NCBI RefSeq assembly: GCF_000023965.1
Contig: NC_013202.1
Span: 1,620,001-1,652,000, forward strand
DNA from: Halomicrobium mukohataei DSM 12286
Lineage (GTDB): Archaea > Halobacteriota > Halobacteria > Halobacteriales > Haloarculaceae
Reading direction: 5' to 3'
Length of the DNA: 32,000 nt
The translations under genes and the position numbers were made by a program. Of this stretch, positions 5,523 through 27,617 are shown one piece after another (position 1 is the stretch's first letter; every line of letters starts with the position of its first letter). Below the pieces are notes generated by a model. The model was not told the origin of the DNA. It did no database searches and saw only the letters and a list, made by a program, of their open reading frames with translations.

Positions 5523-7031
5523 TTATTCTATGTCTAAGTCACTCTTTAATATATCTTCTTCAGACAGTTCCTCTTTCATTAGCGAGTGAGCGAATCCTAT
5601 TATTTCACTGGACTCATTCTGGGAGACAGTTTCCATATCATGGACTACGTTATTGCGCTTTTTTCTCATTTTATTAAGCGAATCGTATTGGGTATTTGAT
5701 ATGGCGTTGCTCATTTCCAAAACCTCAATTTTATGCGTAGAAGTCCAATTTGCACTAGAGGTCACCTTCTTTCGCCGGTCGTGATTTACTCCAACTGTAT
5801 TTTTAAGATGAGAATCTAAAAATTGGTTAATATGTTGTTCTATAGCGATCCAAGTCAGGAGGTAAGATTGTCTAAATTCTCCATTTTTATGATGAGTGTA
5901 TGCCTGGAGTAGCGATTTTGCTTTTTCCTGCAAATCCTCATCGGCACATATCGACTCTGCCAAATCAACGACGGCTTCCAAAGTTTCGGTCTCAACTATA
6001 TCGCGAGATACCAGATCTCTTGAACGGAAATGATCTTCATTTTGGACATTATAATATGGTTCGATGATTTTCCGCTCAATTCGTTCAGGAGATCCAATAG
6101 GACGTATCTCAGTTGTATCGTCCTGGGATTCAATTCTGACTTCTACAAGATCATCAACTGTCGCAGCTAGGAATGGTTCAGTAGTGTATAGGGATGCTGA
6201 AAAGATAGAATTTAGTATATTTAATGCCTTCTGAGGATCAGACTCGTCGACACAAATAAATCCATCTTGTCGAATATATACATCTATTTCCTGTATATTT
6301 AAATTCAACTGAGCTTCCTTCTCACGATTTGGCTCATTTAGAATCTTATCTTTGAACGATTGCTCTGGTTCAGAGCCAACCCAAATCGGTTTGTAAAAAT
6401 ATGTACCCAACCCATCGCGGTCCCTCTCTGGAGGTGATGAATCCGGTTCTTCGGTCGATCTATCTTCATCAACCGAGTCAAATAAACCCTCTAATTGAAC
6501 AATAGAGATATCTGTTGGGTCTAATTCCAAAATGTCGCCTATTATCACATAGCCCCAGCCGAACCGCCCAAGATCGAGTTGGGTGTATGCACTTTTATCA
6601 TAGTCTTGGAATATTGAGTCTTCTACGGTTTCAACGAAAACTGAAAATAAGTCTCTTAACAGGCGGCGACGCTTCACTAAACCAGTACCATCGACGTCTC
6701 GTCTATGTGATATGCGGCTTTTTTCGACCGGTTGCTGCCACCGCGGAGATTCCAAGACTGAATCTGCCTCTTCTATAAAGTTTTTACCATCAAAGGGACC
6801 ATTTATGATGATTTCAAAATCATCCCGGTTGTCGTCATGAGTCTTGACAAGGGCGTAAGCGGGTATAGGGTCCTCAATATAGAATATCTCTAATTGGATT
6901 GGTTTCCGAAAATCCATCCCTCTATATGTTTTAAATATCCCATCCATTTCTTCGACATCTTCTGGATAATATTCTTCAAAATCACTTACTAGGTCCTCTA
7001 AATAATCCTCCAACTCAGACTCACTGGACAT
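5523..7031 (-). CDS. Large protein with C-terminal HEPN-like (Rx4H) module and an uncharacterised N-terminal region of about 370 aa
   Basis: 502-aa uninterrupted ORF in AT-rich DNA, where long ORFs rarely arise by chance. The C-terminal all-helical region reads FRQSYLLTWIAIEQHINQFL...YDSLNKMRKKRNNVVHDMETVSQNESSEIIGFAHSLM. It contains RNNVVH, which matches the HEPN Rx4-6H signature. Confidence 0.65.
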   Translation of the reverse strand: MSSESELEDYLEDLVSDFEEYYPEDVEEMDGIFKTYRGMDFRKPIQLEIFYIEDPIPAYALVKTHDDNRDDFEIIINGPFDGKNFIEEADSVLESPRWQQPVEKSRISHRRDVDGTGLVKRRRLLRDLFSVFVETVEDSIFQDYDKSAYTQLDLGRFGWGYVIIGDILELDPTDISIVQLEGLFDSVDEDRSTEEPDSSPPERDRDGLGTYFYKPIWVGSEPEQSFKDKILNEPNREKEAQLNLNIQEIDVYIRQDGFICVDESDPQKALNILNSIFSASLYTTEPFLAATVDDLVEVRIESQDDTTEIRPIGSPERIERKIIEPYYNVQNEDHFRSRDLVSRDIVETETLEAVVDLAESICADEDLQEKAKSLLQAYTHHKNGEFRQSYLLTWIAIEQHINQFLDSHLKNTVGVNHDRRKKVTSSANWTSTHKIEVLEMSNAISNTQYDSLNKMRKKRNNVVHDMETVSQNESSEIIGFAHSLMKEELSEEDILKSDLDIE

Positions 7032-8216: not shown

Positions 8217-9254
8217 TCATGATTCGCTTGGAGTGTCGAGTTGCAGGTCGGTGATGTAGGGGCGACGGCGCTGTTCCAACCGCTGGCGCTCCGTCGCCTG
8301 GTCGTAGTACTTCTCGATGACTTCGAGCGTGGCGTTCACCCGCTCGCCGACGATCTCCGCCGGCAGGCCGCAGTCGCGTTGCCACGTGATGCTCCCCGTC
8401 CTGATCCGGTGGGGAGAGAGCGACGACGGGCACTTGCTGGCGTGGTGAACGTGGACGTACTCGCAGGCGTCCCGCTCCTCCCCGTGGGGACAGGGACCGA
8501 ACAGGCACGGCTGCGTGGCCAGATACGTCCACACACGTAGCGTGTTCTCGGACGAGCGACCCTGCGTCGTCGTGAACAGCGGCTTCCGTCCGCTGCCGTC
8601 GTGAGAGGTCTCGCGATAGTGCTCGATGTAGTAGTCCAGCACCTCGCAGACCGATTCCGGTAGGCCGACCGCTCGCTCGCCGTCCGAATCGTTCTTGAGC
8701 GGCGTGCCATCGCGGTGGTGGAACGTCACGAAGCGCTCGGCGCTGTGGTAGTCTCGCAGGTCGAGACTCCGAGCTGCACCGACACGGCAGCCGGTGAACC
8801 ACAGCAGTTCGAGCACGGCGTGCTTCGCCGTCCCGTACCGCTCCGGCGTCTCACGGAACGACCGAATCAGGGCCGCGGCGTCGTCCGGGTCGAGCATCTC
8901 GTCGTTGGAGCCCTCGCCGTCGGGGATGCTGGGGACGTGGACCTTCTCCGGCAGCCCGTCGTCGACGACACCGATACGGGCCAGGTACTCCAGCCAGTTC
9001 TTGAGCGTCTGCATCTCGCCGTTCAGTGTCGACGCAGCGAGGTCCTGACCGCGTCGGTGGGTCTCGTACTCGTCGAGCGTCCACCCGGTCAGGTCGCTCA
9101 TCGCCTCGATCCCCTCCTTCTCCTCCGTCCAGTCGACGAAGATCTTCAGTCGGTACCGCCACGACTTGACGGACTCCGCTGCCGACTCCGTCTTGCGGTG
9201 GTTCAGGTACCTCTCCATCGCTTCGCGAGGGGACAGGTCCGGCGCGTCAGTCAT
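8217..9254 (-). CDS. Tyrosine-type site-specific integrase
   Basis: 345 aa. The N-terminal SAM-like core-binding region reads SPREAMERYLNHRK...SWRYRLKIFVDW. Catalytic residues appear in LLWFTGCRVGAARSL (Arg), SPHRIRTGSITW (HxxR) and EVIEKYY (Tyr). Confidence 0.9.
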   Translation of the reverse strand: MTDAPDLSPREAMERYLNHRKTESAAESVKSWRYRLKIFVDWTEEKEGIEAMSDLTGWTLDEYETHRRGQDLAASTLNGEMQTLKNWLEYLARIGVVDDGLPEKVHVPSIPDGEGSNDEMLDPDDAAALIRSFRETPERYGTAKHAVLELLWFTGCRVGAARSLDLRDYHSAERFVTFHHRDGTPLKNDSDGERAVGLPESVCEVLDYYIEHYRETSHDGSGRKPLFTTTQGRSSENTLRVWTYLATQPCLFGPCPHGEERDACEYVHVHHASKCPSSLSPHRIRTGSITWQRDCGLPAEIVGERVNATLEVIEKYYDQATERQRLEQRRRPYITDLQLDTPSES

Positions 9255-9783
9255 CGGCGACGACGGCTTTCCCGGCCCCGTCGTCGGGCTGCGCTCGGTC
9301 CAGGTCGTCGGCGTCGGCGACGCGCTTCCCCTTCACGTAGACGCGCTCTTCGTCGCTCTGGTCGTAGTGCTCGGTCCGCACTTCGCGGATACCGCCGATC
9401 CGATGAGGGGGAAGCTTGCCTTCTCGACCGCGCCACTCCGTGAACGAGACCCACCCGCTCGACAGCGTCTCGTAGTTGGCGACGTAGACCGGCCCCTGAC
9501 CGCGCACGTCGACGTAGGCCGGCGTGTAGGTGTCGGGCAGCCGCTCGGGGTCGACGCGGTCGCTCTCGGCGTCGATCTCGCCGCCGTCGGGTAGCACCCG
9601 CTGCTTGCGCTTGACGATCTTGCCGGCCCGCGAGATCAGCAGGTGCTCGCTCTCGTCCGTGTGGTGAGTCCATGTCTCGCCGCACTCGGAGCACTCGACG
9701 GCGGCCTCGTCCTGCTGGAGAGTCCCGTCACACAGCACGCGAGGGCAGTCGTCGCCGTCCCAGATCTGCTGGGTCACCGTCAT
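9247..9783 (-). CDS. Zinc-ribbon protein of unknown function
   Basis: N-terminal CPRVLC...CSEC motif. The ORF is acidic and overlaps the integrase start by 8 nt, which suggests an operon. Confidence 0.65.
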   Translation of the reverse strand: MTVTQQIWDGDDCPRVLCDGTLQQDEAAVECSECGETWTHHTDESEHLLISRAGKIVKRKQRVLPDGGEIDAESDRVDPERLPDTYTPAYVDVRGQGPVYVANYETLSSGWVSFTEWRGREGKLPPHRIGGIREVRTEHYDQSDEERVYVKGKRVADADDLDRAQPDDGAGKAVVADD

Positions 9784-9864: not shown

Positions 9865-10071
9865 TTAGGCGGCCCCCGTTTCGGACTCGTCGATACTACC
9901 GTTCTCGTCCCGGCAGAGTACCGTTTCAGGCGTGTCGAAAGGTGAATCCGTAGCCTGTCGGATGCAGTGGCGGATGTACTCTGCTCGGCTCATATTGTGC
10001 CGATCCTTCTCTTCCTCGATCTGCATGAGCATGGCCGGTTCCATACCCACGGTCACATTTGCATGTGGCAT
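9865..10071 (-). CDS. Ribbon-helix-helix (CopG/Arc-like) DNA-binding protein
   Basis: MPHANVTVGMEPAMLMQIEEEKDRHNMSRAEYIRHCIRQA fits the beta-alpha-alpha RHH pattern. The internal ATG at 10071 is preferred. The track start at 10131 adds an AT-rich leader. Confidence 0.65.
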   Translation of the reverse strand: MPHANVTVGMEPAMLMQIEEEKDRHNMSRAEYIRHCIRQATDSPFDTPETVLCRDENGSIDESETGAA

Positions 10072-10188
10072 GCATGAATGACTGATTAGCTCCTGCAAGT
10101 TATAGTTTACGAGAGACCTAAAAACATTCAAAGACTATCGAGGCAAACATCCGAGAGCAATATCAGTCATGCATTCATTCACTCAGAC

Positions 10189-10512
10189 ATGCGCTATTCG
10201 GGCGACTGGATGGTACTCGCAGATGACCGGATTCTCGAATACATCCGCGAAAATGAATCTGGTCGCCCAACTGCGATGGCAGAAAGCGGGTACGTCCGGT
10301 ATTCACGTCAGTATGTCCACCAGAGATGCAAGAAGCTCACCAAGCACGGACTCCTGAAACATCTCGGCAATGGGGTCTACATCATCACAGAACGCGGAGA
10401 GGGTTATCTGAACGGCGAGATCGACACGTCCGAAGACGCACCGGACGAGGTGGAGCCAGTCTTCGACGAGGACAACGGACCAAGCGTCGGGGAGAACCAC
10501 GAGCAGGTCTAA
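10189..10512 (+). CDS. PhiH1-repressor-like winged-helix protein (paralogue 1)
   Basis: WMVLADDRILEYIRENESGRPTAMAESGYVRYSRQYVHQRCKKLTKHGLLKHLGNGVYIITERGEGYLNGEID matches the halobacterial PhiH1-repressor-homologue pattern W..DDRILE...GLL...G.Y.IT..G..YL.GE.D. Confidence 0.7.
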   Translation: MRYSGDWMVLADDRILEYIRENESGRPTAMAESGYVRYSRQYVHQRCKKLTKHGLLKHLGNGVYIITERGEGYLNGEIDTSEDAPDEVEPVFDEDNGPSVGENHEQV

Positions 10513-10515
10513 GAG

Positions 10516-10806
10516 ATGAACGAGAGAAAGTCGGCCCACTGGATGAAGCAGCTGGACGAACGAATCTTAGAGTACATCGACCGGGACGGAATGGCGACTC
10601 CCCGGATGATGGCCCGCGACAGGGCTTTCACAGCGTCGCCAAGTCACATCTGGGAACGGTGCCAGATGCTCTACTACATTCGGTTCGTCGAGCCGATCTA
10701 TAGCGACATGTACGACCTGACGACGGACGGGATGCTTTATCTTCAGGGGAAGATCGACGCCGATCACCGGCCAAAGCCGACTGTTGAGCGAGTCCTAGGA
10801 GGCTAA
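10516..10806 (+). CDS. PhiH1-repressor-like winged-helix protein (paralogue 2, divergent)
   Basis: HWMKQLDERILEYIDRDGMATPRMMA...YDLTTDGMLYLQGKIDA shows the same pattern. It starts 3 nt after paralogue 1. Confidence 0.65.
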   Translation: MNERKSAHWMKQLDERILEYIDRDGMATPRMMARDRAFTASPSHIWERCQMLYYIRFVEPIYSDMYDLTTDGMLYLQGKIDADHRPKPTVERVLGG

Positions 10807-10810
10807 ATGT

Positions 10811-11755
10811 ATGTTTATAAATAAAGTTTTCACTTGCCAAAAAATTGATTCTGGAGAGGAATCTGGGGAAGAGGAAGCTGAAGTTATGATTGACGACGAT
10901 AGTGGTAGTATCGATTTCCAGATGAGTCACTATGATGTTAGTGAAACTGGCAAAAGAGAGGCGCACGACGTAGAGGCCCAAGACATTCAAAGACGTACCC
11001 TTGAGCGAATGTTAACAGTAACGTCTGAATGGCTGGATTCGGACGTTAAAGGATCAGTCAGTGTCAATTTAGGAGAGGTATCGGGAGTATATGGTCAAAG
11101 AGGCCATGAAGTAGCGGTTGGAAGAGAAAGAATCAATTTTGACCTACATGTTTCAGTTAATGATCGAGGAGTTTGGTTTGGGGATCAAGATTTGGGGTTA
11201 TACAAGATCCCAGCAGGCCCAAAGAAAGACGTAAATAAAAACACATACAATAATCTATACAATATCCGTCAGTTCCGGGATTTATTGGAGGAGTTTCTCT
11301 ACAGCTACGGCAGAGAAAATAGAGATGATCAAGATGTTGGTAGTTTCAGCTACCCAACCTCTGAATTAGATGATGAACTCATTGAGCGTGTTCTCCCAAA
11401 GTATGATCGGGGAAATTTTGGCGACGCTGTTCAGACAGCGGGTAAAATTGTTGAAGAACGTGTTCGGCAAAAATCTCCGGAAGAACTCAAAGAGAAGGAT
11501 GGGAGCGAGCTTATTCAGGAAGCAACCAAGTCGGGTGGACCTCTCTCATTTGGAGAACGATCTGCGGAGGAACAGGGTGTAATGTTTCTGTATGCAGGCT
11601 CATATCAAGCAATCAGGAATCCGCTTAGCCATCGGTCTCCAGATCAGTCAAAAGAACGGTATTTAGATGATCTTGGGAAAGAAGAGGCCCACAATATAAT
11701 ATCATTCGTCAATCTTCAACTCCGGTTTTTAGACCAATATGCCAGTAGCCCCTGA
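10811..11755 (+). CDS. Ymh/TIGR02391-type HEPN-domain protein with an unknown N-terminal domain
   Basis: The C-terminus reads RGNFGDAVQTAGKIVEERVR...GSELIQEATKSGGPLSF...EEQGVMFLYAGSYQAIRNPLSHR...EEAHNIISFVNLQLRFLD. This fits the Hypoth_Ymh/TIGR02391 pattern, including the RNPxxH (Rx4H) motif. The gene is AT-rich and starts 4 nt after the preceding stop. The true start could be the internal MIDDD. Confidence 0.7.
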   Translation: MFINKVFTCQKIDSGEESGEEEAEVMIDDDSGSIDFQMSHYDVSETGKREAHDVEAQDIQRRTLERMLTVTSEWLDSDVKGSVSVNLGEVSGVYGQRGHEVAVGRERINFDLHVSVNDRGVWFGDQDLGLYKIPAGPKKDVNKNTYNNLYNIRQFRDLLEEFLYSYGRENRDDQDVGSFSYPTSELDDELIERVLPKYDRGNFGDAVQTAGKIVEERVRQKSPEELKEKDGSELIQEATKSGGPLSFGERSAEEQGVMFLYAGSYQAIRNPLSHRSPDQSKERYLDDLGKEEAHNIISFVNLQLRFLDQYASSP

Positions 11756-12017
11756 AGCAAGAGCTGAAAACATATTTGACGTAATCACACATGGGGTTGC
11801 GCGTCGAGAAAATGGCTTCCTCCAATATGAACACGAGACTGGGTGACTCCGTGTTCATATTCGCCGGTCGCCCTCGATCGTGACCACGAATCTCCTCGGC
11901 AGTTCAGCACTTCACCCCCAAATCGGGCCGAAATGACCCGTCCAGTGAGTCGAAAAACTAGGATTCTGTGGTCGTGTTCATAGATATCAGACACCGTTTA
12001 GCTTTCACGATTATTAT

Positions 12018-13015
12018 ACGCTCTTGTGAAGCACGTTGTTGATTTTCAGAGTGCGGCGTTGAGAGCATGTTTGAGTGCTTCGTCACCTGGTTTTCTGTAG
12101 AGTTCACGGCGGAGTTCGAAGGCTCTGAGATACGGCGTTAGCTTGTCTTTCGAGACGCCTCGATGGGGCGAGAGCCACCGTCGCGTCAGCGACGCGTGGC
12201 TCTCGCAGCCGTTGACGTGTACTTCGCCATCAGCGTATTCACCGTCGCTGTGGACGACGTATTTGCGGGTGAATGAGTCGTCGTCTTCTAGTGGGTCGTA
12301 GGCCCGAAATCCGTCCGTATAGACGGTCAGTGACTCCTCTTCGTGGTCAGCAAGCAGGAGTCGAACGGTCGATTCGTCAGCGGATTTCGCTGGCACGACG
12401 TACCGCTCGTCCGAACCACGATCGACGAGCGTGAACACCGGCGGTTTGTCGCCGTCGTACGATCCCCGTCCACGCGTGGACAGGCCACGCGAGCGCGACT
12501 CCTGGTCACGCTCGCGGCCTTTGAGACCAGCAGAGACGTACACTTCGTCGATTTCGACCGGTCCAGACAGCGTAATCGAAGGCGCGTCGAGAGTTCTGGC
12601 GAACTGCTCGACGTGCCGTCTCACCGTCCGGTAGGAACAATCAAGCTCTGCCTCGATTTGCCGAATACTCGTGTTGAACCGTAAGAACACGTAGATCGTG
12701 AAGTACCATTCTTTGAGCTTCAGCTTCGAGTGAGCGAAGATCGTGTCGGTCTTGTCGTTGAACGTGCGACCGCAATTCTTACACAGATACCGTTGATACA
12801 CCCGGTAGCTGCCGTTTCTGACCGTCAGGTCAGAACGGCAGCGGGGGCACTCGACGCCATCACGCCAGCGAACCTGTTCCAGCAGGTCCGCTGCAGCCGA
12901 TTCCGACACGAACCGGCTTATTGGGAACATATCGGGCACCGCTAGCGCGGTGCCCTTGCCCTCTTCGACTTTCAGCTCCAGCCATCGCTATCAACAATCT
13001 CCTTCGCAAGAGCGT
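12018..13015 (-). mobile_element. IS1595-family insertion sequence (ISH4-like), 998 bp
   Basis: Imperfect 26-bp terminal inverted repeats with 22/26 matches (ACGCTCTTGTGAAGCACGTTGTTGAT versus ACGCTCTTGCGAAGGAGATTGTTGAT). It has a single transposase ORF and is flanked by TATTAT on both sides (12012-12017 and 13016-13021). Confidence 0.8.
12046..12939 (-). CDS. IS1595-family DDE transposase
   Basis: N-terminal transposase zinc ribbon (CPRCRS...CKNCGRTF), then a DDE region (EIDEVYV...LTVYTDGFRAYD...VNGCESHASLTRRWL). This is the organisation typical of IS1595/ISH4-group transposases. Confidence 0.9.
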   Translation of the reverse strand: MPDMFPISRFVSESAAADLLEQVRWRDGVECPRCRSDLTVRNGSYRVYQRYLCKNCGRTFNDKTDTIFAHSKLKLKEWYFTIYVFLRFNTSIRQIEAELDCSYRTVRRHVEQFARTLDAPSITLSGPVEIDEVYVSAGLKGRERDQESRSRGLSTRGRGSYDGDKPPVFTLVDRGSDERYVVPAKSADESTVRLLLADHEEESLTVYTDGFRAYDPLEDDDSFTRKYVVHSDGEYADGEVHVNGCESHASLTRRWLSPHRGVSKDKLTPYLRAFELRRELYRKPGDEALKHALNAAL

Positions 13016-13495: not shown

Positions 13496-13834
13496 TTGAT
13501 GGGGGAGATAGAAGCCGTCGAGAATGTTGAGGAGTGGGTGTTGAGAGACCTCAAGAGTTCGAGTTTTAGTGATGAAGAACGGGAAGATGCAGTTGAGGGG
13601 ATAGAGAAGGTCGAAAAAGATCTTGTCACTTGGGGACGGCCGATTCTGAAAGTTCTAACAATCGTAGAGCACACGGGTGACAAGACGGTCTATCGGTATC
13701 GAGATGATCCGCTTAGGCTCTTCTTCATCCGAAAAGGAGAGACTATGTACTGTATCGGCGTCGGAAAACGGAAAACGACGTACGATCGGGACTTGGATCA
13801 GTTCAGTGATCGAGCAGACAACCATCCACCCTGA
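13496..13834 (+). CDS. RelE/ParE-like toxin-fold protein
   Basis: The C-terminal half HTGDKTVYRYRDDPLRLFFIRKGETMYCIGVGKRKTTY follows the RelE/ParE pattern G..lYR.R.gd.R.i........i....g.R...Y. It has an extra acidic N-terminal extension of about 40 aa. Confidence 0.5.
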   Translation: MMGEIEAVENVEEWVLRDLKSSSFSDEEREDAVEGIEKVEKDLVTWGRPILKVLTIVEHTGDKTVYRYRDDPLRLFFIRKGETMYCIGVGKRKTTYDRDLDQFSDRADNHPP

Positions 13835-14422
13835 TTACAGCCACTCGACTTTCTCCCGCTCCCGAAGCTGTGCCTCGGGGCTGTGCGTTCCCCGGTAGTG
13901 GTCCAGGAACGTCTCCAGGTCGTCCCAGCCGCCCCAGTCGCAGACGACCATCGCGTCAACGTCGGCCGACCGGAGGCTCGTCGCCCACGTTCGTCGGAGA
14001 TCGTGCATCCCGACATGTTTCCAGCCGGGTTCACTAGTCTCCTCAGCCAGTTGATCGCGTGCTCTGGATATCCAGCGACGTAGTGACCGTTTGCTGGACT
14101 GAATCACCGGTTCATCAGTCGGCTCCTCACGGATGTCTCCCACCGTTCGTATGGTTGTCGCTAAGTCGGAGGGAATCGGCGTCTCACGGTAGTGTCCAGT
14201 CTTCGCTGATTCCCACACCCGAAGCATCTTCCCAGCATCCGTATCTGCGACGTGATCGGGAGCGACACGCACAACTTCGTCGGTTCGAAGGCCACAGTGG
14301 GCCGCCAGTTGGATAGCTACGCGCCACTCGGTTTCATCGGAATGGTCCAGCAGTTGATTGACCTCTCGTTCAGATAACCATGCCTTCATTCCGTCTTGTT
14401 TTTCGTATTCTTCGAGGTTCAT
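13835..14422 (-). CDS. Short tyrosine recombinase (catalytic domain only)
   Basis: 195 aa. Motifs seen: LSEREVNQLL...LAAHCGLRTDEVVRV (Arg), HDLRRTWAT (HxxR) and FLDHYRG (Tyr). There is no N-terminal core-binding domain. Its stop abuts the stop of the RelE-like gene. Confidence 0.85.
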   Translation of the reverse strand: MNLEEYEKQDGMKAWLSEREVNQLLDHSDETEWRVAIQLAAHCGLRTDEVVRVAPDHVADTDAGKMLRVWESAKTGHYRETPIPSDLATTIRTVGDIREEPTDEPVIQSSKRSLRRWISRARDQLAEETSEPGWKHVGMHDLRRTWATSLRSADVDAMVVCDWGGWDDLETFLDHYRGTHSPEAQLREREKVEWL

Positions 14423-14581: not shown

Positions 14582-15007
14582 TCAGTAGGGGTTCACTGCG
14601 CTATTCAGGCGTGTGACGCCGTCGATCGAGTCGAAGTCGTCGTCGAAGCTATAGATATACTCGATGTTCTCAGACTCCATGAACGCAGTCTGCATACTGT
14701 CGCCGAAGTTCAGGCCGGGATAGCCACGAAACAGGGATCGACCGAGGCCGAAGTTCTTCTTCGGATTGTACTGCAGCTCGAAGTGTGCGCCCTGTACGAA
14801 GCGGTCGAGGAGGTCGACGGCGCGGTCATGGCCTTTTCGCTCCTCGACGAAATTCAGCGTCTCAAGCAACGCTTCGTTGGTGATGACGCCATCGGGCAAC
14901 TCTCCGTAGTCGATCCCGCGCAGAATCTCCAGTCCACGCTGGTGGTCAGCGTCGTCACGATCCGCCGCAGCAATGAGGGCAGTGGCATCTAAGAGTGCCC
15001 TGCTCAT
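14582..15007 (-). CDS. vapC: PIN-domain ribonuclease toxin VapC
   Basis: LLDATALIA..D.DD...(E)...D..SFDDDFD is a typical PIN acidic-residue layout. It overlaps the upstream antitoxin gene by 4 nt. Confidence 0.85.
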   Translation of the reverse strand: MSRALLDATALIAAADRDDADHQRGLEILRGIDYGELPDGVITNEALLETLNFVEERKGHDRAVDLLDRFVQGAHFELQYNPKKNFGLGRSLFRGYPGLNFGDSMQTAFMESENIEYIYSFDDDFDSIDGVTRLNSAVNPY

Positions 15008-15249
15008 CGCTCCTCTCCGCTCGTGTTGTGGGCGGTCCCGCCGTCTCCTCCCATCGACATGGGTTCGAAGTCATCGAAGACACCTTCGCGCTGGTGGACG
15101 ACCTCCACCATCACGTCGCCCTCTTCGACGGTCCAGCGGATCTTGTCTCCCGCTTCGATGCTGAGTGCCTCTCTGATCTCGGAGGGGATCGTGACGCCAC
15201 CACGTTCACTCACGGTCGTCTCGTCGCTGGTTCCCATATTGATAGCCAT
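15004..15249 (-). CDS. vapB: AbrB/SpoVT-type antitoxin VapB
   Basis: TVSERGGVTIPSEIREALSIEAGDKIRWTVEEGDVMVEV is a swapped-hairpin AbrB-like motif. It is the classic partner of VapC. Confidence 0.85.
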   Translation of the reverse strand: MAINMGTSDETTVSERGGVTIPSEIREALSIEAGDKIRWTVEEGDVMVEVVHQREGVFDDFEPMSMGGDGGTAHNTSGEER

Positions 15250-17480: not shown

Positions 17481-18371
17481 TCACTCCATCGCGATGCCGA
17501 CCTGTGCCACGTTGTGTGCCTTGCACAGCTTGTACAGGTTGTTCGCGCTCTCGTCCTGGATCGTGTCTTCGTGGCTGGCGTCGTCGCCCGATTCTTCTCG
17601 AACCCACATCGAGTGCGTCCCGATGATGGCGTCATTCCCGTCGTTGTTCTGGTACTGGCCCGAACACACCACGTTGTCCGTCGTCGTGTAGTTCGCGAAG
17701 TTGTTGTCCGGGTTCACCTGCCCTCGACCGTGCTGGCTGCTGCCCGATTGCGTTCCGGGCATCGCGCTCAGGAAGTTCGTCCAGTTGCGTGAGTGGCGGT
17801 CATCGTAATCAGTGTCGTAACACTGTGCGTGCCAGAGAACTGCGTAATTGCTCTCTCGGTTGGCGGCCGCGTCGAAGTCCCAGGTCTCTGCGAGTCGGGC
17901 CATCCCGATCGCCATATCTTCGTCGTTGCCGTCTCCGACGTTCCGCTCGACGTAGAAGGCCCACCCGTCGGTGTCGGAGTAGTCGAGATAGTAGCTCACG
18001 CTGTCCCCTTCGTCGATGATCTCTCCGCCCCTATCGTCGGGCGCATATCCCATCGGATCATCATAATCGTCTCTGCCGGTCTCAGCAGCCACGTCGTGCG
18101 CGTAGCGATCGGCCCACGTCGAGTTTGCCGAGTCCCAACTGGGACCGTGTTCCATTCGGATCGCTCCAGCGTACCCATTGTCGAGTACGAAAATCTGGAA
18201 ACACTCGCCGTTCGGTGCGCTGATGACGAACCACTCCCCGTCGGCGATGCTCTCGGCGTCGCCGTTCGCTGAGGTGTCTTCGAGCGACCAGTTGGTCATC
18301 CCGGCGATGTTGTCTCTGAGTGCCGCCAGTGCTTTGCCCCACGTCGTCGCGATTGGTCCTTCGAAAGTCAT
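17481..18371 (-). CDS. Acidic protein, candidate spike or receptor-binding structural protein
   Basis: 296 aa, rich in D/N/G/W/Y (...GWAFYVERNVGDGNDED...NPDNNFANYTTTDNVVCSGQYQNNDGND...). The call rests on its position in the late-gene train downstream of the capsid-sized ORFs. Confidence 0.6.
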   Translation of the reverse strand: MTFEGPIATTWGKALAALRDNIAGMTNWSLEDTSANGDAESIADGEWFVISAPNGECFQIFVLDNGYAGAIRMEHGPSWDSANSTWADRYAHDVAAETGRDDYDDPMGYAPDDRGGEIIDEGDSVSYYLDYSDTDGWAFYVERNVGDGNDEDMAIGMARLAETWDFDAAANRESNYAVLWHAQCYDTDYDDRHSRNWTNFLSAMPGTQSGSSQHGRGQVNPDNNFANYTTTDNVVCSGQYQNNDGNDAIIGTHSMWVREESGDDASHEDTIQDESANNLYKLCKAHNVAQVGIAME

Positions 18372-20698: not shown

Positions 20699-20839
20699 TC
20701 AATACGGAGCAGCGTCCATCAACACGCGGACCACTTCGGCGTTGCTCGGCCGGCCCCCTGGCCGTTGCTGCTCGATCGTCTCGCGGAGCTGCTCGAAGTC
20801 CTGGCTGTCCGTCCCCTGGAGAGTGATTTGCGTTCTCAT
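20699..20839 (-). CDS. Small RHH-like ORF (46 aa), below the track cutoff
   Basis: MRTQITLQGTDSQDFEQLRETIEQQRPGGRPSNAEVVRVLMDAAPY fits a beta-helix-helix pattern. Its ATG overlaps the TGA of the ATPase gene (ATGA). Confidence 0.4.
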   Translation of the reverse strand: MRTQITLQGTDSQDFEQLRETIEQQRPGGRPSNAEVVRVLMDAAPY

Positions 20840-21666
20840 TCTGGCATCTTGATGCTCTTACCCGGCGCGCCGACGTGCTCGCTGTCCATGTCGACGTTGG
20901 CCGAGTTCATCCGTCGCACTGTGCCGCTGTCGTCCGAATAGATCCACTCCGAGCCGGTGACTATGTCGCCGTCCGTCCACTTCCGCACCGAGACCGGCCC
21001 TCCGTCGTCGGCGTGGAGGTCGTCGGGAAGGCCCGGCACGCGGTGGCCGCCCGACCGGTGAAGGTCCTGCGGGTAGTCCACTACACCGCCGATCTTTGAG
21101 AGGTCGCGGTCGCTCTCGAAGCCCCCGAGTTTCCGGGCGGTACACTGGGCGATGATCGTCTCTGCCAGCTCTGAGAGCCGTTGAGTTACCCAGATACTCG
21201 ACTGGCCCTCGCCGCGCCCGGTCGTCGCCAGCCCCTTGATGGGGTCGAGGAGCTTCGCCTGTTGCTGGGCAACGAAGTGGGCTTCGTCGATGACCCACAG
21301 CACCGATAGGGACGACCGCCGACCGGCACTGATCGCCTTCGCACAGACCGCTCGCCACTGTTCAGGCGACAGGTGCGAGTGGCGGGCCAGCACGACGTTG
21401 CCGTTCTGCTCGATCAGCTGCCGGAAGTGATCGGTCGACCACTGCTCGGCTTCGACGGGGCCGGCGATCCAGTGCTTGGCCTTCCCGGCCTTGACGAGAC
21501 CGCGGTACTCGTCCTTGTAGTCCAGCAGCACCACGCCGTCGTACTCCCCGAGGTTGCTTTCCGTGGTCGCCTGACAGACGTAGGACTTCCCCCATCCGCT
21601 CGCCGCTGCGAGGAGCAGATTCACGCCCCACACCCCGCGAGTCCGAGAGACGAACCAGCCAGCCAC
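20836..21666 (-). CDS. FtsK/HerA-type genome-packaging ATPase
   Basis: Walker A in LLLAAASGWGKSY and Walker B in LSVLWVIDEAH. At 276 aa it has the size of packaging ATPases of membrane-containing icosahedral viruses. Confidence 0.75.
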   Translation of the reverse strand: MAGWFVSRTRGVWGVNLLLAAASGWGKSYVCQATTESNLGEYDGVVLLDYKDEYRGLVKAGKAKHWIAGPVEAEQWSTDHFRQLIEQNGNVVLARHSHLSPEQWRAVCAKAISAGRRSSLSVLWVIDEAHFVAQQQAKLLDPIKGLATTGRGEGQSSIWVTQRLSELAETIIAQCTARKLGGFESDRDLSKIGGVVDYPQDLHRSGGHRVPGLPDDLHADDGGPVSVRKWTDGDIVTGSEWIYSDDSGTVRRMNSANVDMDSEHVGAPGKSIKMPE

Positions 21667-23125: not shown

Positions 23126-23703
23126 AACACCTCCTCGGGTGTTTCGCCGTCGTCTACGGGTTCGGCGGCCGTGCTCTCCACCTCGATCGGTTCCTGCTCG
23201 TCGTCACTGTCGGAGCTGGTCGCGAGCGCCACGACCACCGCGAGCAGCACGGTCCCGACGAGGATCACCGCCCCCGAGCGGCCGCTACCACCGCTTTGAG
23301 CGTGGTCGTCCTGATCGTCCGTCCCGCTGCCGTTGGTGCTTTCACCACTGCTCTCCCCGCTCGTTTGCTGTAGCTGTTGCTCGTACTCGTCGGATTGGTC
23401 CATCTCGTCGCCCTCCTCGGGCTGCTCGTTTCCCGCTTCTGTGCCGCTGTCAACACCCTCTACTGGTGCTTCGCCCTGCTCGTCGTCCTCGTCTTCCTCG
23501 GTAGCGGCCGCTCCACCGGTGCCGGGCGGGTCGTCGTCGCTGTCACCGCTCTCGTCGACGCCCATCAGCGCCGCTCGAAGTGCTTCCATGTCCTCGTGAG
23601 CGGCGTCTTTCTTCGCGTTGATGTGCCGCCGGACACTCTCTTTGCTCTTTTCGCCGTCTTCGTTGTAGTCGCACCCCTCTGCGGGGCAAATTGGTCCTGT
23701 CAT
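23122..23703 (-). CDS. Hypothetical acidic protein with a TM segment
   Basis: N-terminal CPAEGC motif and an acidic linker containing DEQGEAPVEGVDSGTEAGNEQ. The TM segment is AVILVGTVLLAVVVALA. Confidence 0.6.
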   Translation of the reverse strand: MTGPICPAEGCDYNEDGEKSKESVRRHINAKKDAAHEDMEALRAALMGVDESGDSDDDPPGTGGAAATEEDEDDEQGEAPVEGVDSGTEAGNEQPEEGDEMDQSDEYEQQLQQTSGESSGESTNGSGTDDQDDHAQSGGSGRSGAVILVGTVLLAVVVALATSSDSDDEQEPIEVESTAAEPVDDGETPEEVF

Positions 23704-24998
23704 AACTCACTGATCGTCCCCTGTTCGGGGTCGTGAAACTGCTGCTGGTCGGTGCTCTCGGTGCCGTTCTCTGCCCCCATCGAGGGGTCGTCTCGTTCGT
23801 CGGCGAGGAGACCGCCCCGGTTGACCGGTGCTTCAGCGGTGCTTTCTCGCCCCTGAGCGGTGCGGGTATCCGCTTCGACTGCCAGTGCCGTCTGCTGGTT
23901 TTGCTGCTCTCGCTCCCCGGACAGGTCGACCTGCGCGCTTTCGGCCCCCTGAAGCACCTGCTCGTTCTCCGCTTCTGTGCTGCTGTCAGCACCCTCTACT
24001 GGTGCTTCGCCCTGCTCGTCGCTGTCAGTGCCGGCGACCACCTGCCGAATGTGCTCGCGGTCCCCCTGAGTGACGGGGTGCGAGTGGTCGCTGTGGTCGG
24101 CGTGGCACTCGTAGCAGTCGGCGGCCATCTGCCGGGCCAGGTCCATCAGGTCGGCCTGTGATCCCTCCAGCTTCTCGAAGTGAAGGGGCTGCTGGCCGAC
24201 GGTCTCCCGAATCTCGTTGATTGTTCGGGCGGCCTGCTGTGCGTGGACCCATTCGTTGGCCAGCGTTTCGAGGGCGTCGTCGACGGCGTCGAGCGCCCCG
24301 AGGTAGCCGTTCCACGCCTGCTTGAGCGCGCCCTTCTGCTTGCCCGTCAACTCCTCGGACTTGACCGCCTCGCCCTGTTCTACCTCCTCGGGCTTCGAGG
24401 GAGCCGGGCGGTCGTCCGGTGCCCGCTGGGCCAGTAGCATCTCCTGCACGTCGTCGAAGTCGTACTGGCAGGTCTCGGTGAGGAACTCGCAGGCTTCGGG
24501 ATCACCTGCCTCGCAGTGGCCCCGTGCGTGGTCGCATCGCTCGCCCTTTGCCGTCTGGGCAGCGTCAGCGGCCTTCTCGTCGGCACTCTCCTGCTCGTCG
24601 GTGCGCTTGCCGCTCTCGCGGCTGGCGTCGGCCATCACCTCGCGGTGTTCGTCGACAGTCAGAGTGCCGTCGTAGTAGCTCACCCAGTCCTCGACACCCT
24701 CGGACCGAGCGATCCCCTTGACCGCCTTCGCGTGGGGAACCGAGGCGCGTGCCTTCCCGAAGTCGATCCGGTCACGCTCGCCGTCACTGAGCGGCACCTG
24801 ACCGGGACCGTCGCTCCCTTCGCCCCGACTGTCTTCTGCTTCGAGGCGCTCGGCGTCAAGCACATGGTCCGGCGTGTCGGCGTCGGAGTAGGCGACGGTC
24901 TTCAGCCGCCGGTCGTCGTCGGTACACAGATACTCCTCGTGTCGGTCTCTCGCGGCGTCTGCCGCGTCCTTGGTTCCATACTCGATACGTGTCGTCAC
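23700..24998 (-). CDS. Large hypothetical protein with Cys/His clusters
   Basis: 432 aa with clusters CDHARGHCEAGDPEACEFLTETC and CYECHADHSDHSH. It contains DEQGEAPVEGADSSTEAENEQ, duplicated from the downstream gene. No recognisable replicase motifs were seen. Confidence 0.65.
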   Translation of the reverse strand: MTTRIEYGTKDAADAARDRHEEYLCTDDDRRLKTVAYSDADTPDHVLDAERLEAEDSRGEGSDGPGQVPLSDGERDRIDFGKARASVPHAKAVKGIARSEGVEDWVSYYDGTLTVDEHREVMADASRESGKRTDEQESADEKAADAAQTAKGERCDHARGHCEAGDPEACEFLTETCQYDFDDVQEMLLAQRAPDDRPAPSKPEEVEQGEAVKSEELTGKQKGALKQAWNGYLGALDAVDDALETLANEWVHAQQAARTINEIRETVGQQPLHFEKLEGSQADLMDLARQMAADCYECHADHSDHSHPVTQGDREHIRQVVAGTDSDEQGEAPVEGADSSTEAENEQVLQGAESAQVDLSGEREQQNQQTALAVEADTRTAQGRESTAEAPVNRGGLLADERDDPSMGAENGTESTDQQQFHDPEQGTISEL

Positions 24999-25120: not shown

Positions 25121-25390
25121 ATGTCGCAGCGGCAAGTGAGATACAACGTTGGTCGGGCGCTGTCGGACAGTCCGGTGGTGCCCCTTGGTGATGCAAAAGC
25201 GCAGGAACAGGGCGGTTCTTCGGTCTACGTGCCATATCCGCAACCCCACGCCCGGAATCAGGGCATCGAGCAGAGTAGTGAAGTGGAGCTGGCACTGCTC
25301 GCTGGGACTGGGGTTATCATGGTCGCACCGTCTGGGTTCGACTGGGATACGCTCGAAAAGCAGGGTGAGCCGTTTACTGCCGGTCAGTAG
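25121..25390 (+). CDS. Small protein, possible AbrB/SpoVT-like regulator; the only plus-strand gene in the GC-rich viral part (about 14.6-27.5 kb)
   Basis: 89 aa. GSSVYVPYPQPHARNQGIEQSSEVELALLAGTGVIMVAP resembles a looped-hinge AbrB-type strand pattern. TTTTTAC lies 25-29 nt upstream of the ATG. The gene is divergent from the 24998 gene. Confidence 0.45.
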   Translation: MSQRQVRYNVGRALSDSPVVPLGDAKAQEQGGSSVYVPYPQPHARNQGIEQSSEVELALLAGTGVIMVAPSGFDWDTLEKQGEPFTAGQ

Positions 25391-26093
25391 CCGTGCTCAC
25401 GTCGCGGCTGTTCCCGCCGTCCGCAACCGCGAATAAAGTCTGCTGTTCTTGGCGGCCTTCAACGGCTCGAAGAATGCTTTCGGATAGCTCGTGTGGGACT
25501 TTCGCACGTTCCGCTGGGTCGCGTGGGTACGGGTCTTCTGTGTTCGCACAGCCGCCGTGCGTGTTGGATTCGTGGCAGTCGTCGGCGTAGCCGCACCACC
25601 GATACTCGAAGCCCTGTGGGTGGTCTCCCCACAGGTCGGTGGGTTTCATCACGTCCTCTCCGTACTGGCAGTAGCTGACGGTGCCGGCAGGCTGACCGAG
25701 TATCCAGCGCAGCCGGCCGACGGGGTTTTCGAGGAACCAGTAGTCGGGCGAGATCGCCTTGATGAGCCCGACGATGTGGTGCGTGAGTGTGATGTGCTTC
25801 CGGGTCTTCGGGTGGTCCGGTTCCTTCGTCTCCGGGTTCCAGTACTTCTCCGACGGGCACGCCTTCGAGAACGTAGTACACGGCGGGCTGGCGAGGACGA
25901 TGTCGGCGGCCGGCAGATCTGCCGGCCGGAGGTTGAGCACGTCCGCGCAGATGTCCGGCTCGAACTCCTCTTCTATCTCAACGGTGACGACTCGCCAGTT
26001 TTCGGCGTCCTCGAAGGCCGACGAGAACCCGCCCAGGCCAGCGCAGAGGTCCAGACAGATTCGTTCAGTCCCGCTTCCAGACTGCTCAGTCAT
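25374..26093 (-). CDS. DNA (cytosine-5)-methyltransferase, compact form
   Basis: Motif I in ICLDLCAGLGGFS, motif IV in LASPPCTTFS (PC dipeptide) and motif VI-like FLENPVG. The start at MTEQSG gives an 8-nt overlap with the upstream gene. The track start at 26129 is also possible. Confidence 0.8.
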   Translation of the reverse strand: MTEQSGSGTERICLDLCAGLGGFSSAFEDAENWRVVTVEIEEEFEPDICADVLNLRPADLPAADIVLASPPCTTFSKACPSEKYWNPETKEPDHPKTRKHITLTHHIVGLIKAISPDYWFLENPVGRLRWILGQPAGTVSYCQYGEDVMKPTDLWGDHPQGFEYRWCGYADDCHESNTHGGCANTEDPYPRDPAERAKVPHELSESILRAVEGRQEQQTLFAVADGGNSRDVSTATDRQ

Positions 26094-26553
26094 CGGCCGG
26101 CGCACCTCCCTCGATGCCGAACTCGTCACGGGCGGTCAGCGGACGCACAGCAACTTTCCCGTAGACGACTGAGAGAAACGGCGTGTCGTCGAGTGGTTCC
26201 AGCACTTCCTCACGGATGATCTGTTTCGGCGTGTTCGGGTGGGTCTCCTCGCAGAGGATCGACTTCACTCGCTCTACACTGATGACCCGCTTTTGATCGC
26301 CAGCGAGTGCGAGGTAGGCGTCGGCGAGCGTCGGGTCTTCGGGGAGGAGGTACCGCGAGTCTTGCGACGACGGCAGGAATTCGTCGAGAGCATCACGGAC
26401 CACATCGCTTTTCGTGGCTCCGTGCGCTTCGATGTACTCGTCGAAACGGGCAGCGAGAGCGCCGGAAAAACGTGCTTCGGCCCGTGCCTCTGCCTTGTGC
26501 CGGTCGGCGGTCTCGGAGTCGCCGGGCAGTCGACTTCCGCGGGACCCGCTCAT
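26086..26553 (-). CDS. RHH (CopG-like) domain protein with a C-terminal extension
   Basis: RFSGALAARFDEYIEAHGATKSDVVRDALDEFL fits the strand-helix-helix RHH pattern. Confidence 0.6.
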   Translation of the reverse strand: MSGSRGSRLPGDSETADRHKAEARAEARFSGALAARFDEYIEAHGATKSDVVRDALDEFLPSSQDSRYLLPEDPTLADAYLALAGDQKRVISVERVKSILCEETHPNTPKQIIREEVLEPLDDTPFLSVVYGKVAVRPLTARDEFGIEGGAPADD

Positions 26554-27544: not shown

Positions 27545-27559
27545 AGTGGGACCGCCGAG
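27545..27559 (+). repeat. attR: 15-bp core within the tRNA-Pro 3' end
   Basis: AGTGGGACCGCCGAG, identical to 8139-8153. Confidence 0.8.
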
Positions 27560-27617
27560 ATTCGAACTCAGGTCCTACCGACCCCATCGGCAGAGGATAC
27601 CACTACCCCACGGTCCC
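27547..27617 (-). tRNA. tRNA-Pro (anticodon GGG)
   Basis: Folded by hand into a 71-nt cloverleaf. Acceptor GGGACCG/CGGTCCC plus discriminator A. D-arm GGGT-AGTGGTA-TCCT. Anticodon arm TGCCG-ATGGGGT-CGGTA, with U33, GGG and G37. Variable region GGAC. T-arm CTGAG-TTCGAAT-CTCGG. No encoded CCA. Confidence 0.9.

Follow-up and report, generated by a model that had tools for sequence, protein, structure and literature searches.

The closest described relatives of the locus reported here are found in the Pleolipoviridae. In SNJ2, the repressor Orf4 was shown experimentally to repress the integrase promoter PInt via a palindrome that occupies the same intergenic position as the inverted repeat discussed below; Orf4 maintains lysogeny, and its over-expression blocks SNJ2 infection (PMC10123103). 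The cognate repressors of five other proviruses, including one from Halomicrobium mukohataei DSM 12286 that may be the present one, also repress their integrase promoters, and a tandem arrangement of such repressors has already been described for pleolipoviruses (PMC10123103). The slot behind the SNJ2 repressor is held by HicB/HicA, a functional toxin-antitoxin module that is dispensable for the lysogeny switch (PMC10123103). A second point of reference is the Ymh family, which is listed among the HEPN families with a conserved Rx4-6H motif and occurs either solo or fused to paraMORC, AbiJ-NTD1 or AbiTii, often in restriction-modification or abortive-infection (Abi) neighbourhoods (PMC3710099). 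Here we examine a locus where the two come together, in a stretch of 32,000 nucleotides (nt) of H. mukohataei DSM 12286 (GCF_000023965.1, contig NC_013202.1, positions 1,620,001 to 1,652,000 of the forward strand), called the window below and numbered from its first letter. Within a provirus, two genes for winged helix-turn-helix (wHTH) proteins resembling the PhiH1 repressor are followed by a gene for a protein with a C-terminal Ymh-type HEPN domain (the Ymh gene). Our analysis indicates that the Ymh gene is cargo (a "moron") of foreign composition in a variable slot after the second repressor, outside the conserved module. What is new at this locus is the N-terminal part of about 170 amino acids (aa) of the Ymh protein, while the repressor pair and the general design of an N-terminal domain joined to a HEPN domain are already known.

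Repressor pair, cargo gene and integrase operon

The core of the locus consists of three genes:

10189-10512, plus strand: wHTH1, 107 aa, a PhiH1-repressor-like winged-helix protein and predicted lysogeny repressor
10516-10806, plus strand: wHTH2, 96 aa, a second, more divergent PhiH1-repressor-like protein
10811-11755, plus strand: the Ymh gene, 314 aa, encoding an N-terminal domain and a Ymh-type HEPN domain

These genes are separated by 3 nt (10513-10515) and 4 nt (10807-10810) and all lie on the plus strand, divergent from a minus-strand orf68-orf178-integrase operon; the coordinates of the open reading frames (ORFs) thus confirm the three co-directional, nearly abutting genes reported in a first-pass annotation of the same DNA. 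That annotation had called all three AT-rich, which holds for the third (GC content 0.43, with 0.36 at third codon positions, GC3) and not for the two wHTH genes (0.56-0.57); the integrase stands at 0.66. The junction between wHTH2 and the Ymh gene is a sharp step in composition, from 0.57 to 0.43 in GC and from 0.75 to 0.36 in GC3, which argues for separate origins of the pair and the Ymh gene. The locus is also present in assemblies GCA_009217585.1 and GCA_003992375.1.

Both small proteins had been described as PhiH1-repressor-like, and our comparisons bear this out. They are paralogues (32% identity) that each matched PDB entry 3B73, a "PhiH1 repressor-like protein" (E=1e-22 for wHTH1 and E=1e-7 for wHTH2). 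The betapleolipovirus HHPV4 has the same tandem arrangement, divergent from its integrase, and its ORF3 and ORF4, both annotated as "PhiH1-like repressor", are 47% identical to wHTH1 and 42% identical to wHTH2 (E=3e-27), respectively. Over its full length wHTH1 is also 33% identical to the SNJ2 Orf4 repressor (E=2e-13), and 296 homologues of it, mostly 60-86% identical, were found in haloarchaea. On these homologies, wHTH1 and wHTH2 belong with the tandem PhiH1-like repressors already known from SNJ2-type integration-immunity modules.

Searching one genome per species with wHTH1, we recovered 21 related loci from at least 15 haloarchaeal genera, the neighbours of which were compared by tblastn. 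A wHTH2 gene lies directly 3' of wHTH1 in 16 of the 21 and a divergent integrase is present in 14, while the Ymh gene occurs in none. Among the Ymh-protein homologues with a readable context, none is preceded by a wHTH pair. The three genes had been proposed to form one cassette, and this proposal falls, as the pair is conserved in 16 of 21 loci and its supposed third member in 0 of 21. Because the Ymh gene is absent from these loci and the drop in GC falls exactly at the gene junction, we regard it as cargo and not as part of the module.

The same comparison bears on the possibility of a type II toxin-antitoxin or addiction module, in which wHTH2 (or wHTH1) would act as antitoxin to a Ymh HEPN toxin and post-segregational killing would stabilize the provirus. 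A gene for a DNA-binding protein placed 5' of an abutting, co-directional gene for a predicted RNase is the classical type II layout, and there are further points of agreement: wHTH1 weakly matches AbiEi antitoxin wHTH models (E=9e-5), the functional HicAB module occupies the same slot in SNJ2, and a PIN/MazE-like pair lies nearby (~14582-15237). However, the wHTH pair is kept in 16 loci without any Ymh gene and there are Ymh homologues without a preceding wHTH gene, which speaks against co-evolution as antitoxin and toxin, and the composition break at the junction, with the separate origins it implies, points the same way. We consider such a module quite unlikely. As for wHTH2 in the role of dedicated antitoxin, this candidate was rejected on the ground that conservation of the pair does not extend to the HEPN gene.

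A GGAGG motif lies 8 nt 5' of the Ymh-gene ATG at 10811, and no TATA-like AT-rich element was found in the ~30 nt upstream of this ATG. With a gap of only 4 nt to wHTH2 there is no room for an archaeal promoter (TATA box and B recognition element, BRE) of its own, so the gene is probably read from the repressor transcript and its protein made in the lysogen. The slot it occupies is filled differently in other loci, with low-GC genes that often run in the same direction as the repressors; at least seven other elements have co-directional low-GC cargo immediately behind wHTH2. In loci L004, L005, L007 and L024 the slot encodes predicted multi-pass membrane proteins. L015 (6807-10196) has a 754-aa GHKL-type ATPase (a weak HATPase_c_3 match) and a type II methyltransferase (PADLOC, E=2.5e-111), L011 (6620-7804) has a type II restriction enzyme (PADLOC, E=2e-33), and L020 has a protein matching the defence-associated PADLOC models PDC-M19A and DarG, together with DUF7387.

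The recurrence of such cargo also matters for a different account, according to which the Ymh gene is independent of lysogeny altogether. In that case a host-type HEPN gene associated with defence or restriction-modification would have landed here by chance, for example through insertion sequence (IS)-mediated insertion into an AT-rich island, and would have its own signals or no expression. The foreign composition of the gene and the adjacent IS1595 element would agree with this, and so would two observations from elsewhere: other haloarchaeal Ymh proteins sit in unrelated plasmid clusters (AAA ATPase ... TIGR02391 - M48 protease - vWA), and at a distance of 4 kb, outside the operon, there is a further HEPN-like gene of low GC. 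It is difficult to reconcile with a gap too small for a TATA/BRE promoter and with the GGAGG in front of the ATG, and the seven or more other elements with co-directional low-GC cargo argue that the position has been selected and is not accidental. We judge chance arrival unlikely, and continue with the Ymh gene as cargo that is probably co-transcribed with the repressors.

On the other side of the repressors lie the divergent control region and the integrase operon:

10070-10178: divergent control region with a 17-nt inverted repeat (arms 10070-10086 and 10162-10178), a candidate operator pair
9865-10071, minus strand: orf68, 68 aa, first gene of the integrase operon, ribbon-helix-helix-like by eye
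9247-9783, minus strand: orf178, middle gene of the operon, with Cys-X-X-Cys pairs and an 8-nt overlap with the integrase gene
8217-9254, minus strand: integrase, 345 aa, an SNJ2-type tyrosine integrase and the last gene of the operon

The arms of the inverted repeat are 88% complementary and each abuts one of the two divergent start codons. In loci L004, L005, L008, L010 and L013 the equivalent positions carry inverted repeats of 10-13 nt, with one mismatch allowed, that differ in sequence, as expected of co-evolving operators; by our own estimate, only ~0.01 inverted repeats of a 13-mer with one mismatch would arise by chance in 170 nt. It is most likely that wHTH1 and wHTH2 bind the inverted-repeat sites in this 117-bp intergenic region, where they would silence the integrase operon and control their own. 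The integrase is 36% identical to that of SNJ2 over 97% of its length (E=1e-55), 52% identical to the integrase of Haloferax LSV-48N and 36% identical to that of HHPV4, while the Pfam Phage_integrase and SAM-like domains match it weakly; by this homology it is placed in the IntSNJ2 family. Homologues of orf68 were found in nine related loci (28-74% identity), and those of orf178 adjoin the integrase in L004, L005, L008, L009, L012 and L020. Neither protein matched a family in Pfam and PADLOC scans, and BLASTP of orf178 against the SNJ2 accessory proteins Orf2 and Orf3, and of orf68 against Orf3, revealed no similarity. According to the literature, many SNJ2-type elements are without Orf2/Orf3 accessory proteins.

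The HEPN protein and its N-terminal domain

The product of the Ymh gene is 100% identical to a protein recorded at NCBI as "TIGR02391 family protein [Halomicrobium]" and is composed of two regions:

10811-11314, plus strand: N-terminal domain, aa 1-168, an undescribed beta4-alpha-beta5-alpha domain
11363-11731, plus strand: Ymh-type HEPN domain, aa 185-307, with the Rx4H motif R269..H274 at 11615-11632

The first-pass annotation had recognized a well-preserved Ymh/HEPN module at the C-terminus, and a check against the family models agreed with it. PF09509 (Hypoth_Ymh) matched aa 185-307 with E=3.3e-23 and 82.2 bits, compared to a gathering cutoff of 25, and covered profile positions 2-119 of 119. 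The score for TIGR02391 was 38.0 bits, marginally below its cutoff of 39.45, the NCBI label of the identical protein notwithstanding. The Rx4H motif is intact (R269-N-P-L-S-H274); H274, R275 and the "NPLSHR" block are conserved in homologues, and most of these have Rx4H. A weak partial match was also obtained to the PADLOC model PD-Lambda-3_B, in which the C-terminal ~105 aa align with the C-terminal part of the model (E=9e-6). PD-lambda-3 has been described as an abortive-infection system (PMC13190303), and none of the seven neighbouring ORFs that we scanned matched its A component. When the full-length 314-aa protein was compared with PDB sequences, only noise was returned.

Homologues of the HEPN part are found in several settings. 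Other haloarchaeal Ymh proteins share only this part and lie in unrelated contexts, and scans with an alignment of the full-length proteins recovered one viral and three metagenome loci, none of which has the wHTH pair. On L030, a 2.7-kb contig from a marine metagenome, a Rep-like protein (48-995) adjoins a 393-aa protein (1235-2416) that has a different N-terminal region and a C-terminus of the same Ymh subfamily (45% identity), which suggests small plasmid- or virus-like replicons as further carriers of Ymh cargo. The Natrinema and Halosimplex plasmids of L034 and L035 share a cluster consisting of an AAA ATPase, two hypothetical genes, a TIGR02391 protein, an M48 metalloprotease and a vWA protein, and this may be a distinct multi-gene system that contains a Ymh protein.

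The state of the gene is relevant to whether it is simply a decaying or inactive passenger that happens to be intact in a degraded provirus. The element does have an IS insertion and a mosaic look, and proteins 100% identical to this one are confined to Halomicrobium genomes. On the other hand, an ORF of 314 codons at 43% GC far exceeds the length expected to stay open by chance, no catalytic or family-conserved residue has been lost, identical copies are found in at least two assemblies, and the N-terminal domain folds confidently in prediction. We regard decay as very unlikely. Another alternative is that the protein is a factor of virus offence or of the replication cycle, an RNase used after induction to degrade host RNA or to counter host defence. 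HEPN RNases do serve both sides of virus-host conflicts (PMC3710099), and the gene is carried by a provirus. Against this, the gene would belong to the repressor operon, itself expected by analogy with SNJ2 to be active in lysogeny and shut down or antagonized on induction; moreover, no sequenced free halovirus and none of the phage records compared has the Ymh gene, and it is not conserved among related elements. An offensive role therefore appears highly improbable to us.

The N-terminal region had been noted as having no known fold, and the absence of a family held up: there was no match in Pfam, NCBIfam or PADLOC, and a Pfam scan of six N-domain sequences at E<=10 returned nothing except a spurious DUF4031. 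AbiTii was rejected as an identity for the domain, as none of the six N-domain sequences matched it in Pfam; the AbiJ-NTD models lie outside Pfam and hence outside this comparison. An exhaustive HMMER search with aa 1-190 against 1.84 billion representative proteins recovered only P0126, P0002, P0003, P0127 and P0129, plus one spurious low-complexity match, and a profile search of a 5.8-billion-protein set returned three N-domain members that were already known and nothing more. These relatives are acidic proteins encoded on short, low-GC metagenome contigs (1.3-1.4 kb for P0126, P0127 and P0129), and on the few contigs that carry them there is no abutting upstream wHTH gene. P0126, P0127, P0002 and P0003 have the full architecture of N-domain plus HEPN. 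In P0129, the N-domain is followed by PF18742 (REase_DpnII-MboI, E=6e-38) instead of HEPN, and a profile of the N-domain built without P0129 scores this protein at 80 bits over the whole domain. The N-domain is thus coupled to two unrelated nuclease effectors, and it looks like a sensor or adaptor domain with swappable nucleases.

An AlphaFold2 model of the N-domain is confident (pLDDT 83, pTM 0.79) and has four strands, a helix, five strands and a second helix. For both models that we searched with Foldseek, the top PDB match was to PUR-alpha repeats I-II (probability 0.90-0.97), with one PC4-like and one Whirly protein far down the list, while a BFVD fold search returned only unnamed phage proteins. 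Analysis with hhalign gave no sign of an internal duplication, the two halves of the domain not being detectably homologous. As a lead only, the predicted fold raises the idea of a PUR/Whirly-like binder of single-stranded nucleic acid. One can go further and imagine that the N-domain defines a new and very rare family of archaeal antiviral nucleases made of a single polypeptide, in which a PUR/Whirly-like sensor of single-stranded nucleic acid is joined to an interchangeable effector, either a Ymh-HEPN RNase or a DpnII/MboI-type DNase, and which temperate haloarchaeal viruses would load into an "immunity-operon cargo slot" behind their repressors to exclude competitors. We offer this as a speculative proposal that is fairly unlikely to be right in full.

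We favour a reading in two layers, to which we give about an even chance: a known repressor pair that would control the integrase operon, and behind it a cargo HEPN RNase that the lysogen would produce for exclusion or abortive infection. Under this reading, the Ymh protein would be made in the lysogen from the repressor transcript. Its HEPN domain is predicted to be a metal-independent RNase that forms a dimer with a composite Rx4H site, like other HEPN RNases, and the beta-rich N-terminal domain is a predicted sensor or substrate-binding module that would give recognition of a target or trigger. On sensing an incoming or competing virus the protein may cleave RNA, and the cleavage would either block the invader or arrest the cell, amounting to superinfection exclusion or abortive infection to the benefit of the resident provirus. 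We observed how the genes are laid out, their homologies, the lack of conservation of the trio, the break in composition and the exchange of domains; we infer the co-transcription, the RNase activity, the trigger and the phenotype. The first-pass annotation had suggested a repressor-controlled exclusion or Abi function; as a dedicated pair of regulator and effector this does not stand, given that the trio is not conserved, but an exclusion or Abi role is plausible if "repressor-controlled" is reworded as "co-transcribed with the repressors", as suggested by the 4-nt gap and the GGAGG.

Several points weigh against this reading. The evidence for co-transcription of the Ymh gene with the repressors is gene spacing. 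Our literature search found neither a characterized Ymh member nor a later experimental paper on the family, and a comparison of the 314-aa protein with 50,697 phage records gave no match. Two relatives, P0003 and the 393-aa protein of L030 (1235-2416), have W in place of the catalytic R ("IWNPLHHR" versus "IRNPLSHR"), indicating that RNase activity is not universal in this Ymh subfamily. The variant motif also gains an extra His, and the RNase chemistry of these two proteins may be altered or lost. In the full-length AlphaFold2 model the N-domain is good, and the HEPN part, predicted to be helical over residues 188-311, is poor (pLDDT ~40-78). The PUR-alpha match is weak, with TM-scores of 0.36-0.46, all under 0.5 (best target-normalized value 0.45-0.46), a root-mean-square deviation of ~12 A and E of 0.01-0.03, and the N-domain is acidic (pI 4.7), as haloarchaeal proteins normally are. 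No immunity or antitoxin partner was identified for what is potentially a toxic RNase, and the IS1595 element 290 nt downstream of the Ymh gene could have removed a partner gene.

The provirus around the locus

The remainder of the cargo slot and the flanking regions of the window contain the following features:

5523-7031, minus strand: low-GC gene (GC 0.40), 502 aa, with an RNNVVH (Rx4H) motif near the C-terminus and a large N-terminal part without a family
12046-12939, minus strand: IS1595-family transposase inside the cargo slot (PF12762, E=2e-20; PF12760, E=3e-9)
13496-13834, plus strand: orf112, 112 aa, a slot gene
13835-14422, minus strand: short tyrosine recombinase, 195 aa (PF00589, E=5e-17), a backbone gene that closes the variable slot
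20836-21666, minus strand: SNJ1-like packaging ATPase (phrog_2666), a marker of the provirus body

For orf112 we found no Pfam or PADLOC match and no homologue in the related loci. Homologues of the short recombinase (40-75% identity) lie 0.7-4 kb downstream of wHTH2 in L004, L005, L008, L012, L016 and L021; as that of L021 is on the same strand as the repressors, the recombinase bounds the slot in five of these six loci. The protein consists of the catalytic domain only and, at up to 75% identity, is better conserved than the main integrase. Directly after it on the minus strand are genes for a PIN-domain protein and a MazE/AbrB-type antitoxin (~14582-15237), VapBC-like according to precomputed Pfam matches. 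As to the gene at 5523-7031, a second HEPN protein unrelated to the first had been proposed nearby, for which the case is weak: in addition to the RNNVVH motif, there are low-scoring matches to HepT-like (E=0.0027, below the cutoff) and to PADLOC CARF_HEPN (E=5e-4).

The proviral setting that the first-pass annotation had assumed is supported by the packaging ATPase, an SNJ1 ORF homologue at 17481-18371 and the SNJ2-type integrase. The ATPase is 40-44% identical to those of SNJ1, NVIV1 and HJIV1 over 96% of its length, and the minus-strand genes at ~14.4-25 kb hold both SNJ1-like markers. On this evidence the provirus looks chimeric, with an SNJ1-like body (icosahedral, with an internal membrane) joined to an SNJ2-type integrase and repressor module. 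What the related loci have in common is limited to scattered backbone genes, which makes the elements mosaic. In the provirus body, PHROGs and Pfam scans put names to few genes beyond the ATPase, and an Rfam scan of the window at gathering thresholds yielded no family at all. We looked for attachment (att) sites as direct repeats within 4000-29000 and as a repeated 3' half of the tRNA-Pro gene, and obtained no candidate; one H. mukohataei SNJ2-type element integrates at an intergenic site, according to the literature.

Three further features were noted in the window. ARAGORN predicted a tRNA-Pro(GGG) at 27546-27617 (minus strand) that has no second copy of its 3' half in the window and is not an obvious att site. 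A 64-nt direct repeat with 94% identity (23422-23485 and 23958-24021, 536 nt apart) has its copies inside two neighbouring minus-strand genes of the provirus. A minus-strand ORF at 25374-26129, located between the tRNA gene and the provirus body, encodes a C-5 cytosine DNA methylase domain (PF00145, E=9e-11, N-terminal part only).

Comparison with described systems

Genes of the prophage "moron" type that are co-transcribed with a repressor and act against other viruses are known from bacteria, as exemplified by lambda rexAB. The Ymh gene would resemble rexAB in being an accessory gene directly 3' of a lysogeny repressor that, by this analogy, is expected to be lysogen-expressed and antiviral. 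There is no relation in sequence or fold, however, and the effector in this archaeal provirus is a predicted RNase, whereas rexAB is a membrane-depolarizing pair. The likeness to E. coli PD-lambda-3 is limited to a partial match of the C-terminal part to its B component; this match is weak, no homologue of the A component was found among the scanned neighbours, and the N-terminal part is unrelated.

With respect to described Ymh proteins (PMC3710099), the protein agrees in its C-terminal family match, its Rx4-6H motif and its design of a variable N-terminal domain followed by a C-terminal HEPN domain, as in the AbiJ-NTD1, AbiTii and paraMORC fusions. It differs in that its N-domain matches none of the described partners and is beta-rich, in contrast to the helical AbiJ-NTD1, and in that its gene lies in the immunity operon of an archaeal provirus and not in a restriction-modification operon. 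The predicted N-domain shares two consecutive beta4(5)-alpha units with the PUR-alpha/Whirly/PC4 class, whose beta4-alpha repeats bind single-stranded nucleic acid, but the TM-scores are low, there is no sequence similarity and the halves of the domain show no homology to each other. The pairing of one undescribed beta-rich domain with two nuclease effectors is what marks sensor or adaptor modules in conflict systems. Antiviral defence by archaeal proviruses is almost unexplored experimentally, and the locus is a small and concrete case of it, with one gene that has clear catalytic residues, placed behind repressors for which haloarchaeal genetic work on relatives already exists.

The nearest counterparts remain SNJ2 Orf4 and HHPV4 ORF3-ORF4. 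Common to all are winged-helix proteins of ~90-110 aa, encoded divergently from an integrase operon of SNJ2 type; each gene of the tandem pair has its orthologue in the HHPV4 pair, and here as in SNJ2 an inverted repeat or palindrome lies in the common intergenic region and a variable gene of toxin or defence type follows the repressor. The position after the repressor pair of SNJ2-type modules is a recurrent cargo slot, which could be mined for archaeal exclusion factors. The present element departs from SNJ2 and HHPV4 in its body, which is SNJ1-like (icosahedral, with a packaging ATPase) and not pleolipoviral. It departs from SNJ2 in that its integrase accessory genes are not homologous to Orf2/Orf3, in that its cargo is a HEPN protein and not HicAB, and in that no Orc1/Orf7 anti-repressor module was seen adjoining the locus. 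Set beside these relatives, the locus reveals no new kind of system, and its HEPN protein is best described as a new architectural variant, of a kind already known, in a recurrent slot.

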